64,000 nucleotides of DNA, from the sequence record OK570375. The stretch is one strand, 5' to 3'. Position numbers and translations under genes: made by a program. The notes below the pieces were generated by a model. That model ran no database searches. It saw nothing but the letters and a program-made list of their open reading frames with translations, and was not told the DNA's origin. The stretch's first letter is position 1; every line of letters begins with the position of its first letter. Shown here one piece after another: positions 25,883 to 32,532 of the stretch. The DNA comes from Escherichia phage UoN_LDJ77_1.

Positions 25883-27001
25883 ATGGAAAAATTTATGGCA
25901 GAGTTTGGACAAGGATATGTCCAAACGCCATTTTTATCGGAAAGCAATTCAGTAAGATATAAAATAAGTATAGCGGGTTCTTGCCCGCTTTCTACTGCAG
26001 AAGGACCATACGTTAAATTTCAGGATAATCCTGTAGGAAGTCAAACATTTAGCGCAGGCCTTCATTTAAGAGTTTTTGACCCTTCCACCGGAGCATTAGT
26101 TGATAGTAAGTCATATGCTTTTTCGACTTCAAATGATACTACATCAGCTGCCTTTGTTAGTTTCATGAATTCTTTGATGAATAATCGAATTGTTGCTATA
26201 TTAACTAACGGAAAGGTTAATTTTCCTCCTGAAGTAGCATCTTGGCTAAGAGCCGCGGGAACGTCTGCTTTTCCATCTGACTCTGTATTGTCAAGATTCG
26301 ACGTATCATATGCTGCTTTTTATACTTCTTCTAAAAGAGCTATCGCATTAGAGCATGTTAAATTAAGTAATAGAAAAAGCACAGATGATTATCAAACTGT
26401 TTTAGATGTTGTATTTGACAGTTTAGAAGACGTCGGAGCTACCGGGTTTCCAAGAAGAACATATGAAAGCGTTGAGCAGTTTATGTCAGCGGTTGGTGGA
26501 ACTAATAACGAAATTGCACGTCTACCAACTTCAGCTGCTATAAGTAAATTATCTGATTATAATTTAATTCCAGGCGATGTTCTTTATCTTAAAGCACAAC
26601 TATATGCTGATGCCGATTTACTTGCTCTTGGAACTACGAATATATCCATTAGATTTTATAATGAATCGGATGGATATATTTCTTCAACACATGCTGAGTT
26701 TACTGGTCAAGCTGGGTCATGGGAATTAAAGGAAGATTATGTAGTTGTTCCTGAAAATGCGGTAGGATTTACGATATATGCGCAAAGAACTGCCCAAGCA
26801 GGTCAAGGAGGCATGAGAAATTTAAGCTTTTCTGAAGTATCAAGAAATGGCGGCATTTCAAAACCTGCTGAATTTGGCGTCAACGGTATTCGCGTTAATT
26901 ATGTCTGTGAATCTGCTTCGCCTCCAGATATAATGGTACTTCCTACACAAGCATCGTCTAAAACTGGTAAAGTGTTTGGACAAGAATTTAGAGAAGTTTA
27001 A
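25883..27001 (+). CDS. 35: long tail fiber hinge protein gp35 (372 aa)
   Basis: 372 aa, T4 gp35-like sequence. Confidence 0.95.
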   Translation: MEKFMAEFGQGYVQTPFLSESNSVRYKISIAGSCPLSTAEGPYVKFQDNPVGSQTFSAGLHLRVFDPSTGALVDSKSYAFSTSNDTTSAAFVSFMNSLMNNRIVAILTNGKVNFPPEVASWLRAAGTSAFPSDSVLSRFDVSYAAFYTSSKRAIALEHVKLSNRKSTDDYQTVLDVVFDSLEDVGATGFPRRTYESVEQFMSAVGGTNNEIARLPTSAAISKLSDYNLIPGDVLYLKAQLYADADLLALGTTNISIRFYNESDGYISSTHAEFTGQAGSWELKEDYVVVPENAVGFTIYAQRTAQAGQGGMRNLSFSEVSRNGGISKPAEFGVNGIRVNYVCESASPPDIMVLPTQASSKTGKVFGQEFREV

Positions 27002-27063: not shown

Positions 27064-27720
27064 ATGGCTGATTTAAAAGTAGGTTCAACAACAGGAGGCT
27101 CTGTCATTTGGCATCAAGGAAATTTTCCATTGAATCCAGCCGGTGACGATGTACTCTATAAATCATTTAAAATATATTCAGAATACAATAAACCACAAGC
27201 TGCAGATAACGATTTCGTTTCTAAAGCTAATGGTGGTACTTATTTAAATAAAGTAATTTTTAATAAAGGAATGACTGTTCCCGGCGCGGGGTCAGGTGAT
27301 AATGGTATTTTTGCTGGTCCTGGTGATAGTGCCACGTATGATACTACAAATATGGATATTGTTTCGTGGTATGGTATTGGTTTTAAATCATCACAGGGTT
27401 CAGCGGGTAGAACTGTAGTAATTAACACGCGAAATGGAGATATTAGCTCAAAGGGTGTAATTGAAGCATCACAAATACGCGCAACTTCATTATCTCCAGT
27501 AAATAATTATGACCTTACACGGAAAGATTATGTTGATGGAGCAATAAATATTGTTACAGCAAACGCAAACTCTAGGGTATTACGCTCTGGAGACACTATG
27601 ACAGGAAATTTAACTGCGCCAAACCTTTTTTCACAGAATCCTGCATCTCAACCCTCACATGTTCCACGATTTGATCAAATTGTTATTAAGGATTCTGTTC
27701 AAGATTTCGGCTATTATTAA
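27064..27720 (+). CDS. 36: long tail fiber distal connector gp36 (218 aa)
   Basis: N-terminus MADLKVGSTTGGSVIWHQG as in T4 gp36. Confidence 0.95.
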   Translation: MADLKVGSTTGGSVIWHQGNFPLNPAGDDVLYKSFKIYSEYNKPQAADNDFVSKANGGTYLNKVIFNKGMTVPGAGSGDNGIFAGPGDSATYDTTNMDIVSWYGIGFKSSQGSAGRTVVINTRNGDISSKGVIEASQIRATSLSPVNNYDLTRKDYVDGAINIVTANANSRVLRSGDTMTGNLTAPNLFSQNPASQPSHVPRFDQIVIKDSVQDFGYY

Positions 27721-30700: not shown

Positions 30701-31040
30701 CCGCTCTGATATTCGTGTCAAAAAGGACCTAGTTAAATTTGAAAATGCTTCTGAGAAGCTTTCAAAAATTAACGGTTACACTTATATGCAGAAGCGAGGC
30801 CTAGATGAAGAAGGTAATCAAAAATGGGAACCTAACGCAGGTTTAATTGCTCAAGAAGTTCAAGCTATTTTGCCAGAATTAGTTGAAGGTGACCCGGATG
30901 GTGAAGCTTTACTTCGTTTGAATTACAACGGTGTAATCGGTTTAAATACAGCTGCAATCAATGAGCATACTGCAGAAATTGCAGAACTTAAGTCAGAGAT
31001 TGAAGAGCTTAAAAAGTTAGTCAAATCATTGTTAAAATAA
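27729..31040 (+). CDS. 37: long tail fiber distal subunit gp37 (1103 aa) with C-terminal intramolecular chaperone domain
   Basis: gp37-like N-terminus; C-terminal region with GLIAQEV motif and coiled coil. Confidence 0.95.
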
Positions 31041-31071
31041 TAAGAGGGGCTTCGGCCCCTTGGAGGTTTAT

Positions 31072-31845
31072 ATGGCAGTTGAAGGACCGTGGGTAGGATG
31101 GTCTGCGAGGGTACAAACTGGAGACCCTTGGATGGGTGGTGCCGCACAGAGATTGAGAATGGGAATTCCGTTTTGGATGAGTAATATGATAGGTCGATCT
31201 GTTGAAGTAATTCACACACTTGGAGCAGACCATAACTTCAATGGTCAATGGTTCCGAGATAGATGTTTTGAGGCAGGTAGTACACCTATAGTGTTTAATA
31301 TCACTGGAGATTTAGTATCATATTCTAAAGATGTTCCTTTATTCTTCATGTACGGAGATACACCGAATGAATATGTTCAACTGAATATACATGGTGTAAC
31401 GATGTATGGCCGTGGCGGGAATGGCGGTAGCAATAGTCCTGGCTCAGCTGGGGGTCATTGTATTCAAAATGATATTGGTGGGAGACTAAGAATTAATAAT
31501 GGTGGAGCTATTGCAGGCGGCGGTGGCGGTGGCGGCGGCGGTAACTACGGTAGACTATCATTTGGTGGTGGTGGTGGTCGCCCATTCGGTGCTGGCGGGT
31601 CTTCCTCTCATATGGGTGCTGGTGCAACCGCTGGCACCATTTCCGCTCCGGGTGCAGGATCTGTCGGTGAGGGGTCTCTTTGGGTATATACAGGCGGGAA
31701 TGGCGGTGAAGTTGGCTCAGCAGGAGGTAGATGTAATATTCATGGGAACGGTACAGAATATAACGGTGGTGCTGCTGGTTATGCCGTCATAGGGTCTACA
31801 CCGACATGGCAAAACGTTGGAGCAATATATGGTCCAAGAGTATAA
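31072..31845 (+). CDS. 38: tail fiber adhesin gp38, T2-type with glycine-rich motifs (about 257 aa from ATG)
   Basis: Poly-Gly tracts separating variable segments; GGAGG SD before ATG at 31072; track start at 31060 is a TTG. Confidence 0.85.
31516..31578 (+). repeat. (GGN)n simple-sequence tracts encoding poly-glycine in gp38
   Basis: ggcggcggtggcggtggcggcggcggt (31516..31542) and ggtggtggtggtggt (31564..31578). Confidence 0.8.
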
Positions 31846-31875: not shown

Positions 31876-32532
31876 ATGGCAGCACCTAGAATATCATTTT
31901 CGCCCTCTGATATTCTGTTGGGTGTTCTAGATCGCTTGTTCAAAGATAACGCTACCGGGAAGGTTCTTGCTTCCCGAGTAGCTGTCGTAATTCTTTTATT
32001 TATGATGGCGATTGTTTGGTATAGGGGAGATAGTTTCTTTGAGTACTATAAGCAATCAAAGTATGAAACATACAGTGAAATTATTGAAAAGGAAAGAAAT
32101 GCACGCTTTGAATCTGTCGCCCTGGAACAACTCCAGATAGTTCATATATCATCTGAGGCAGACTTTAGTGCGGTGTATTCTTTCCGCCCTAAAAACTTAA
32201 ACTATTTTGTTGATATTATAGCATATGAAGGAAAATTACCTTCAACAATAAGCGAAAAATCACTTGGAGGATATCCTGTTGATAAAACTATGGATGAATA
32301 TACAGTTCATTTAAATGGACGTCATTATTATTCCGACTCAAAATTTGCTTTTTTACCAACTAAAAAGCCTACTCCCGAAATAAATTACATGTACAGTTGT
32401 CCATATTTCAATTTGGATAATATCTATGCTGGAACAATAACCATGTACTGGTATAGAAATGATCATATAAGTAATGACCGCCTTGAATCAATATGTTCTC
32501 AGGCGGCCAGAATATTAGGAAGGGCTAAATAA
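31876..32532 (+). CDS. t: holin T (218 aa)
   Basis: 218 aa, one N-terminal TM segment, large periplasmic domain; AAGGAGG SD. Confidence 0.9.
   Translation: MAAPRISFSPSDILLGVLDRLFKDNATGKVLASRVAVVILLFMMAIVWYRGDSFFEYYKQSKYETYSEIIEKERNARFESVALEQLQIVHISSEADFSAVYSFRPKNLNYFVDIIAYEGKLPSTISEKSLGGYPVDKTMDEYTVHLNGRHYYSDSKFAFLPTKKPTPEINYMYSCPYFNLDNIYAGTITMYWYRNDHISNDRLESICSQAARILGRAK

Follow-up and report, generated by a model that had tools for sequence, protein, structure and literature searches.

The product of gene 38 (gp38) in Escherichia phage UoN_LDJ77_1 (accession no. OK570375) was found to be a tail-fibre tip adhesin of the T2/T6/S16 type and not a protein of the T4 chaperone type, and the best explanation of its two glycine tracts, which we regard as quite probable, is that they are structural stems of the polyglycine-II (PGII) type at whose GGN islands exchange takes place on rare occasions. 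The protein is an ordinary, already catalogued adhesin: the public entry UFK27336.1 (P0125; Escherichia phage UoN_LDJ77_1) showed identity over all 257 residues, and the best DNA match of g38 within the phage collection was 97%. The architecture (Henning group) and the structural basis (Dunne, 2018) have been established before, as has the idea of recombination (Tetart, 1998; Trojet, 2011), and the modest addition made here is nucleotide-level evidence, read from gene sequences, that the tracts flanking the receptor loop between them (loop B) appear to recombine with each other in viable phage.

The window, i.e., the whole 64,000-nt stretch that was analysed, was shown to belong to a Tequatrovirus and showed 94–95% identity over 24 kb with many T4-like phages of E. 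coli and Shigella. The region from 25.9 to 32.5 kb corresponded to the T-even distal long-tail-fibre locus with the canonical order g35-g36-g37-g38-t (Table 1), in which the holin gene t is the usual 3′ neighbour of g38, and the order g37(S74)-g38-t was kept in all annotated relatives. The C-terminal intramolecular chaperone of gp37 was identified by Pfam as Peptidase_S74 (residues 993–1052), and the motif DVYVR^SD at residues 988–994 corresponds to the DVYIR^SD site that PMC7917993 discusses in fPS phages and S16. Autocleavage of gp37 is predicted after R992 (approximately nt 30704/30705), which would free the last 111 residues and expose the docking tip for gp38. Both the S74 chaperone and the DVYVR^SD motif are consistent with the way in which T2 and S16 fibres are built, gp38 being attached to the tip of gp37 after maturation of the latter. 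A GC-rich hairpin in the g37-g38 spacer directly adjoins the g38 Shine-Dalgarno sequence GGAGG (31062–31066); its folding energy of -13 kcal/mol was not significant compared to shuffled sequences (z = -0.93), and the equivalent site in phage G2133 carries the annotation “putative terminator”. The ORF listing begins g38 at a TTG at position 31060. The ATG at 31072 was taken as the start, residue 1 of this reading being aligned with residue 1 of S16 gp38, and the gene ends with a TAA stop codon (31843–31845).

Table 1. Features of the distal tail-fibre locus and of gp38, with positions in the window.
Feature	Position	Strand	Basis or remark
g35	25883-27001		
g36	27064-27720		
g37, distal long-tail-fibre subunit, 1103 aa	27729..31040	+	
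GC-rich hairpin with UUCG tetraloop (GAGGGGC-UUCG-GCCCCUU), g37-g38 spacer	31044..31061	+	RNA fold
Gene 38, adhesin gp38, 257 aa + stop	31072..31845	+	Pfam, PDB matches, AF2, Foldseek
N-terminal attachment domain, residues 1-40	31072..31191	+	Gp38_N; docking role at the gp37 trimer tip taken from S16
Central beta-helix domain (predicted), residues ~45-148	31204..31515	+	Model secondary structure, S16/PP01 alignment, conservation profile
Tract 1, (GGN)9 = G149-G157	31516..31542	+	
Distal hypervariable loop B, N158-F164, NYGRLSF	31543..31563	+	
Tract 2, (GGT)5 = G165-G169, followed by conserved RPFG	31564..31578	+	
Remaining predicted polyglycine-II sandwich including loops C, D and E, and conserved C-terminal strand	31579..31842	+	
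Holin gene t	31876..32532	+	PF11031, E = 2e-117

Pfam comparison showed that gp38 matches GP38 (PF05268; E = 7.7e-69, 232 bits with a cut-off of 25) over residues 45–257 and the full length of the profile, and Gp38_N (PF21721; E = 5e-20, 71.7 bits) over residues 1–40, both scores exceeding the curated cut-offs. Among solved structures, sequence matches were found to PP01 gp38 (9V85; E = 8e-79) and S16 gp38 (6F45_D; E = 1e-52). An AlphaFold2 model built with 60 homologues in the alignment reached a pLDDT of 90.6 and a pTM of 0.80, and a Foldseek comparison of this model with PDB chains returned 9v85_C (TM 0.84, E = 9e-26) and 6f45_D (E = 2e-22), with nothing significant beyond these two (next matches E > 2). 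The model thus predicts a three-domain fold consisting of an N-terminal helical attachment domain, a beta-helix and a PGII sandwich. Within the attachment domain, W7 and W20 were invariant across 60 homologues, and W35 is present here and not kept in all of them; for S16, the N-terminal tryptophans are known to plug into gp37 in docking (PMC6851490). The beta-helix domain holds the first glycine motifs (GRGGNGG ... GSAGG) and the distal loop A (approximately residues 120–125). The distal loops C, D, and E were placed by alignment transfer at the approximate limits of residues 177–182, 198–205, and 220–231, and further glycine motifs lie within the same 31579..31842 segment.

Glycine makes up 25% of gp38. 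The column entropy of 115 homologues showed that conserved glycine blocks alternate with variable segments in the C-terminal half of the protein, and positions G150–G154, G165–G169, P171, and G173 were invariant in 60 sequences. All testable defining features of the T2/T6/S16 gp38 adhesin family were found in this protein. An earlier note, made from the letters of the window alone, had called the gene product a T2-type gp38 adhesin with glycine runs that separate short variable segments; the first part was borne out by Pfam, the conserved columns, the AlphaFold2 model and Foldseek, and the second agrees with the homologue alignment and the entropy profile.

Location of gp38 at the virion fibre tip and receptor binding are known for S16, PP01, T2, T6 and the FL phages. 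T4 gp38 shares the gene name and the locus position downstream of g37, but is unrelated in sequence and is an assembly chaperone absent from the virion, the T4 receptor being bound by the gp37 tip (PMC6851490). S16 gp38 (PDB 6F45; Dunne et al., 2018) has the same N-terminal helical bundle with tryptophans, beta-helix and PGII sandwich; it differs by showing 44% identity in the structural alignment, by containing G8 and an 8-residue loop B (FRVGHTEA) compared to G9 and 7 residues here, and by binding Salmonella OmpC. The best structural match was gp38 of the E. coli O157 phage PP01 (9V85; mBio 2026), with an rmsd of 2.1 Å and 62–66% identity. Its loop B is likewise located between both glycine tracts and is required for receptor binding, but PP01 contains G8 and a 13-residue loop B of the YSQANNWAGKYVC class compared to the 7-residue loop B of the window, and its receptor is OmpC. 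The gp38 proteins of T6, T2, K3, Ox2, and M1 resemble that of the window in that glycine-rich motifs part hypervariable segments, and differ in having other loop sets and in their receptors Tsx, FadL/OmpF, and OmpA. Within this group, T6 gp38 (P0027) was 75% identical and contained G9 and G5. Ac3 gp38 was 93% identical with the same layout of G9, 7-residue loop B and G5.

The glycine-rich motif (GRM) and hypervariable segment (HVS) architecture goes back to the Henning group (1987–1991), as cited in PMC12892980. In S16, the polyglycine-II helices are made of ten glycine-rich motifs and are stacked as a sandwich of three layers; helix 3, which is long and central, is 151-GGGGGGGG-158, and the hypervariable segments are distal receptor-binding loops (PMC6851490). 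HMMER alignment placed G149–G156 of the window protein on S16 G151–G158 and G165–G169 on the next S16 G5 run, and G157 occupies the position at which the loop of S16 starts. In both proteins, 16 residues separate the beta-helix from tract 2. In PP01, loop B (Q161–V170) sits between the same motifs, and swapping it alters OmpC-dependent infection (PMC12892980). By homology with S16 and PP01, we infer that tracts 1 and 2 are polyglycine-II helices 3 and 4, which flank the distal loop B. In this arrangement G149–G156(157) and G165–G169 would be two of approximately ten such helices in the three-layer sandwich and not spacers, and both would act as stems from which the receptor loop NYGRLSF projects. 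The loop B of the window belongs to the shortest class in the family, with 7 aa compared to 11–15 aa in the others. Since every backbone NH and CO of such a helix would be hydrogen-bonded in the lattice, strong purifying selection on glycine identity and on tract length is expected, with only the third codon positions drifting.

With low confidence, the receptor of the window gp38 is probably OmpA and/or LPS. The closest tested adhesins, those of FL12, FL18, and FL20, are OmpA users (npj Viruses 2025). These OmpA type 2 adhesins share the loop-B class (N-R-G-[RK]-L-x-F), G9 and G5 with the window protein, and their specificity domain is approximately 74–90% identical to it; the loop itself reads NYGRLSF in the window compared to NRGRLVF or NRGKLIF in the OmpA type 2 adhesins. 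Phage vB_EcoM_SP1, which has an identical specificity domain, was reported to show periodate-sensitive adsorption, with no receptor found among the K-12 Keio mutants, and these two observations make the OmpA assignment only tentative.

On DNA level, tract 1 reads GGC GGC GGT GGC GGT GGC GGC GGC GGT in frame. Its description in the earlier note as a pure (GGN)9 was right in coordinates, frame and at the glycine level, but not on DNA level, where GGC and GGT codons interrupt each other and perfect 3-nt periodicity extends over no more than 11 nt (82% matches in TRF). The (GGT)5 named for tract 2 was confirmed in coordinates, frame and coding content, and this tract is a perfect trinucleotide repeat of 15 nt. 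The two tracts were the only occurrences of a (GGN)5 pattern in the 64-kb window, where none was expected from 100 shuffles, and a G9 run was obtained in 105 out of 200,000 shuffles of the gp38 protein. GGC was used in six of the nine codons of tract 1 compared to 16% window-wide (p = 9e-4). The hairpin potential of the tract DNA showed no excess (z = 0.56 on the + strand and 2.92 on the - strand). Exact identity between the two tracts is restricted to 5 nt, tract 2 being made up of GGT only and tract 1 being rich in GGC.

Tract length was surveyed in 260 homologous proteins, comprising 120 cluster representatives and the members of ten 90%-identity clusters. Tract 2 consisted of 5 Gly in 243 of the 244 parsable sequences, and the sole exception was a G-to-D substitution; thus, no length variant of tract 2 was found among the 244. 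Tract 1 varied family-wide from 4 to 9 Gly with a length that followed the loop-B class: 9 Gly were found in 130 of 132 sequences of the loop-B class of the window and in 51 of 54 T6-like sequences, and mostly 8 were found with IAYRPHSGANWQDI. The tract-1 codons differed synonymously between close relatives while the length was held at 9. Scrambled synonymous codons at a fixed length point to purifying selection on a structural element and not to a slippery repeat. Inside the 90%-identity clusters, indels of the C-terminal domain either shortened tract 1 by 1 or 2 codons or lay between the tracts, where the indel was an 18-residue duplication; the single exception was one codon in the 1998 record of Ac3. 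Across relatives, tract 1 was found to be shortened by 1, 2, 3, or 5 codons or lengthened by 3 codons. Indels between near-identical isolates thus fall most often in tract 1, yet at a low frequency of approximately 2–6% of the unique sequences per subtype. Some of the tract-1 length variants come from metagenome or draft assemblies, the accuracy of which is doubtful in G-rich DNA.

Several candidate variants were set aside. The two Ac3 records (1998, 777 nt; 2021, 774 nt) were not used as evidence on tract length, the extra codon being located outside both tracts in an SS-SHM segment; this codon may be an old sequencing difference. The gp38 of HP3 (P0184) contains a frameshift inside tract 1, whereas that of HP3.1 is intact; the frameshift is probably a sequencing error, since the paper on HP3 and HP3.1 reports only two SNPs, elsewhere in the genome. 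Natural deletions of loop B (P0017, P0028, P0029, P0115) and a larger motif-to-motif deletion (P0118, P0120), which would be reciprocal products of the duplication in PYps47T described below, were not accepted as viable variants. Loop-B-deleted genes occurred only in contigs with further defects: in the P0017 contig, 626 residues of gp37 are missing as well, and the ORF of P0115 is split and contains an in-frame stop. The G12 of OES_C-3 was shown to result from in-frame substitutions (AAC TAC to GGC GGC) with the gene length unchanged and was not counted as an indel.

These data bear on the proposal that the slippage-prone (GGN)n DNA acts as a contingency locus, with a high mutation rate within populations that keeps host-range variants ready, as in phase-variable repeats of bacteria. 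The perfect 15-nt repeat of tract 2 and the tract-1 contractions and expansion in relatives would fit such a locus, but it is the perfect repeat that shows no length variation, and the interrupted tract 1 has a codon pattern that differs between close relatives, which is the opposite of slippage with homogenisation. Two of the three hallmarks of a contingency locus were lacking here: repeat-number polymorphism was not frequent (0 of 244 for tract 2; for tract 1, two variants among 132 sequences of this subtype and three among 54 of the T6-like class), and no switching of expression or frame by repeat change is found, since a 3-nt unit stays in frame and on/off frameshift switching is impossible. 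Regarding the third, repeat purity, tract 2 is perfect and tract 1 interrupted. Furthermore, the 2–6% of variants among unique sequences were gathered over years of sampling and represent no within-population rate, and the single-strand folding potential was not in excess. We therefore consider a contingency locus very improbable.

The same survey also bears on a purely structural reading, according to which the tracts are the coding image of PGII helices, the DNA repeat has no evolutionary role, and the rare differences in tract length come from errors in sequencing or assembly or from dead-end mutants. The invariance of tract 2, the 98% fixation of tract 1 within the subtype, the interrupted codons, the probable error in HP3 and the defective contigs of loop-B-deleted genes all agree with it. 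Similarly, among 220 phages, no T6 derivative with an engineered deletion of a glycine motif or a variable segment was obtained (Trojet, 2011). A step in divergence at tract 1 would in this reading mark the place where a conserved beta-helix gives way to loops that evolve fast under positive selection. The modular composition of the gene, described in the following, is what this reading accommodates poorly.

From nt 31516 to the stop codon, g38 showed 100% nucleotide identity with phage vB_EcoM_SP1. In the N-terminal module (residues 1–40), it showed 98% nucleotide identity with Ac3, FL23, and KIT03 compared to 59% with SP1; SP1 and IME340 have a different attachment module with a 2-residue indel. 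Among the adhesins, the N-terminus was either 100% or 52% identical, independently of the remaining protein, and the breakpoint of this discordance was located near nt 31208. The g38 allele of the window is thus a chimera, in which an N-terminus like that of Ac3, FL23, and KIT03 is joined to a specificity domain like that of SP1. The beta-helix and the specificity domain showed identities of 86 and 32%, respectively, to KIT03-like adhesins, and of 52 and 82–87% to Krischvirus adhesins, and each beta-helix type was found together with each C-terminal type; the existence of these four combinations speaks against the purely structural reading.

Maximum chi-square analysis of codon alignments located a breakpoint at nt 31521, inside tract 1, in the comparisons with Ac3 and with the T6-like FL23. 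The comparison with JSE gave a breakpoint at nt 31486, which precedes tract 1 by 30 nt. The breakpoints obtained with SP1 (residue 46) and KIT03 (residue 103) were away from glycine motifs. A synonymous-site test, restricted to third positions of conserved four-fold codons, showed a divergence from FL23 of 4/39 upstream and 33/55 downstream (p = 6.5e-7). The asymmetry was reversed for JSE, with 19/29 upstream compared to 19/59 downstream (p = 0.0055), and was also detected for T4_ev151 (p = 0.0036). The Ac3 breakpoint was not significant at synonymous sites, indicating that diversifying selection on the loops accounts for some of the divergence step at tract 1, as the purely structural reading has it. 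However, the synonymous asymmetries show that the two sides of tract 1 differ in history in several lineages, which loop selection cannot explain, and rate heterogeneity cannot yield strong asymmetries of opposite direction for FL23 and JSE. Modular exchange mediated by a glycine motif is thus supported for tract 1, as judged from these comparisons.

Crossovers in glycine motifs that swap specificity were proposed earlier by Trojet (2011) and by Tetart (1998), as cited there. Among 14 selected RB5 × RB32/33 chimeras, Trojet (2011) found no exchange inside GRM1–GRM5, and the junctions flanked the whole specificity domain. In the explanation that we favour, the conserved GGN codons would provide short islands of near-identity between diverged alleles, as well as between the two tracts of one gene. 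Exchange at these islands could have three outcomes: (i) the whole specificity domain would be swapped at tract 1, (ii) a few Gly codons would be gained or lost in tract 1, or (iii) an unequal exchange between tract 1 and tract 2 would duplicate or delete loop B.

The third outcome may be represented among the PYps phages, a set of Yersinia/E. coli phages that are siblings and come from a single zoo (PMC8762354). The gp38 of PYps47T was shown to have the layout G9-YYSPFSQMRLTF-G6-YYSPFSQMRLTF-G5, in which the two loop copies are identical on nucleotide level. The G6 junction (GGCGGCGGTGGCGGCGGA) consists of the 5′ part of tract 2 followed by the 3′ end of tract 1, and spans a 14-nt sequence (GGCGGCGGTGGCGG) common to both tracts. 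PYps47T thus contains a duplicated loop B that presumably arose by unequal exchange or slipped mispairing between the tracts. In PMC8762354, the change is noted only as “insertion of 15 residues”, and no mechanism is given. In addition to PYps47T, PYps32T showed a 9-nt insertion in tract 1 resulting in G10-V-G, PYps55T a tandem GGQ duplication in the first glycine motif, and PYps35T a 4-residue deletion in a later loop. PYps47T and PYps32T were plaque-purified and propagated, and the PYps47T junction is the exact hybrid expected from tract 1 and tract 2, which is difficult to reconcile with errors or dead-end mutants; together with the synonymous asymmetry and the four domain combinations, this makes the purely structural reading unlikely in our opinion. 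The GRM/HVS work of Henning, Tetart and Trojet treats exchange between alleles, whereas the PYps47T case is an intragenic exchange of tract 1 with tract 2. Within the literature on gp38 and slippage or duplication, we found no paper on slippage of the tracts; the papers of the Henning group (1987–1994) and Tetart (1998) may contain an earlier description.

PYps47T lysed 52 of 128 Y. pseudotuberculosis strains compared to 78–87 for its siblings (PMC8762354). A difference in host range between siblings with differing tract-1 and loop-B states is what a contingency locus would also lead one to expect, but the relation is correlative only, and any consequence of such exchanges for host range is presumptive. 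In the window allele, an exchange of the PYps47T type should be less likely, since the identity common to both tracts is limited to 5 nt. The view of the two tracts as hot spots for indels or recombination holds only in part: tract 1 is the main indel site, though at low frequency, coincides with breakpoints and took part in the loop-B duplication, but tract 2 never varies in length.

It is rather improbable that tract 1, alone or together with tract 2, is a site of elevated rearrangement rate in clonal phage populations, at which in-frame codon slippage or unequal exchange would keep generating variants with a changed length, a duplication or a deletion of loop B. If this were true, T2-type phages would always have adhesin variants in store, comparable to the His-box duplications of T4 gp37, and the interrupted, GGC-rich codons of tract 1 would represent a tuned compromise between stability and exchangeability.

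The current understanding of the gp38 family is unchanged by these results. As gp38 is the main host-range determinant in most T-even phages, it is a target for engineering of therapeutic and diagnostic phages. The glycine tracts would be load-bearing, and loop grafting should leave their length unchanged; tract 1 appears to be the natural seam where exchange of whole specificity domains has taken place, and tract-tract recombination that duplicates loop B is a possible natural route to longer receptor loops.

The two ends of g38, which encodes the tail-fibre adhesin gp38, were found to resemble different relatives. Codons 1–40 showed 98% nucleotide identity to the related phages Ac3, FL23 and KIT03 and only 59% to SP1, and the region from nt 31516, where the first glycine tract (tract 1) begins, to the stop codon matched SP1/IME340-type genes at 100%. 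The g38 allele of the window is a chimera, with a breakpoint near 31208.

Tract 1 was found to be rich in GGC, which makes up 6/9 of its glycine codons compared to 16% of the Gly codons in the long ORFs of the window (p = 9e-4). This richness is also present in the relatives; the second glycine tract (tract 2) consists mostly of GGT. The GC content of the whole g38 was 48.5%, compared to 35% for the genome. The coordinates of tract 1 and of features in the neighbouring tail-fibre region are listed below.

Coordinates of tract 1 and of features upstream of g38
Feature	Position	Location	Property
g35 (hinge-connector gp35)	25883-27001		Pfam match ILEI
21-nt tandem repeat, 1.9 copies	30973-31012	3′ end of g37	encodes heptad-like peptide
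GC-rich hairpin with UUCG tetraloop, GAGGGGC-UUCG-GCCCCUU	31044-31061	g37-g38 spacer	-13 kcal/mol
Tract 1, (GGN)9	31516-31542	g38	

The UUCG hairpin directly adjoins the Shine-Dalgarno sequence of g38, and its counterpart site in phage G2133 carries the annotation 'putative terminator'. Candidate roles for the hairpin are those of an mRNA stabiliser, a terminator or an element of translational coupling. In the intramolecular chaperone of gp37, the peptide encoded by the tandem repeat occupies the extreme C-terminus. Further upstream, residues 59–126 of gp35 matched ILEI (interleukin-like EMT inducer/FAM3 fold; E = 1.4e-8), a match also recorded for the gp35 homologue in locus L036.

Among the related gp38 proteins, that of Escherichia phage OES_C-3 (PQ642264; L022) contains 12 glycines in tract 1. 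Here the first two codons of loop B, the variable receptor loop between the tracts, are changed from AAC TAC to GGC GGC, that is, by four substitutions that leave the gene length unchanged; this glycine gain may reflect local template switching or a patch of gene conversion rather than independent point mutations. In phage M1 (P0031; UniProt RBP_BPM1), the loop-B sequence of gp38, YWNASITRYRYRYVV, contains an RY triplet repeat, and that of close relatives is YWNAGIIRYVV; this looks like a small tandem expansion within the loop itself and outside the glycine tract.

Three homologues from assemblies, P0118, P0120 and P0084, are candidates for either recombinants or assembly chimeras. P0118 and P0120 (212 aa; contigs of 45–221 kb) lack the whole GSAGG-to-GAGGSSSH interval including both tracts, and P0084 (303 aa) is a fusion, at tract 1, of gp38 with the C-terminus of an S74 chaperone of the gp37 type. 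Homologues with the loop-B class of the window, here in the form NRGRLIF (clusters of P0058 and P0066), were present in many Salmonella enterica assemblies, on contigs of ~220–226 kb, far larger than typical T4-like genomes (165–170 kb).

In the window, Ac3/FL23/KIT03-like N-terminal codons are thus combined with an SP1/IME340-like sequence from tract 1 to the stop codon, and the attachment module of gp38 therefore assorts independently of its specificity domain.
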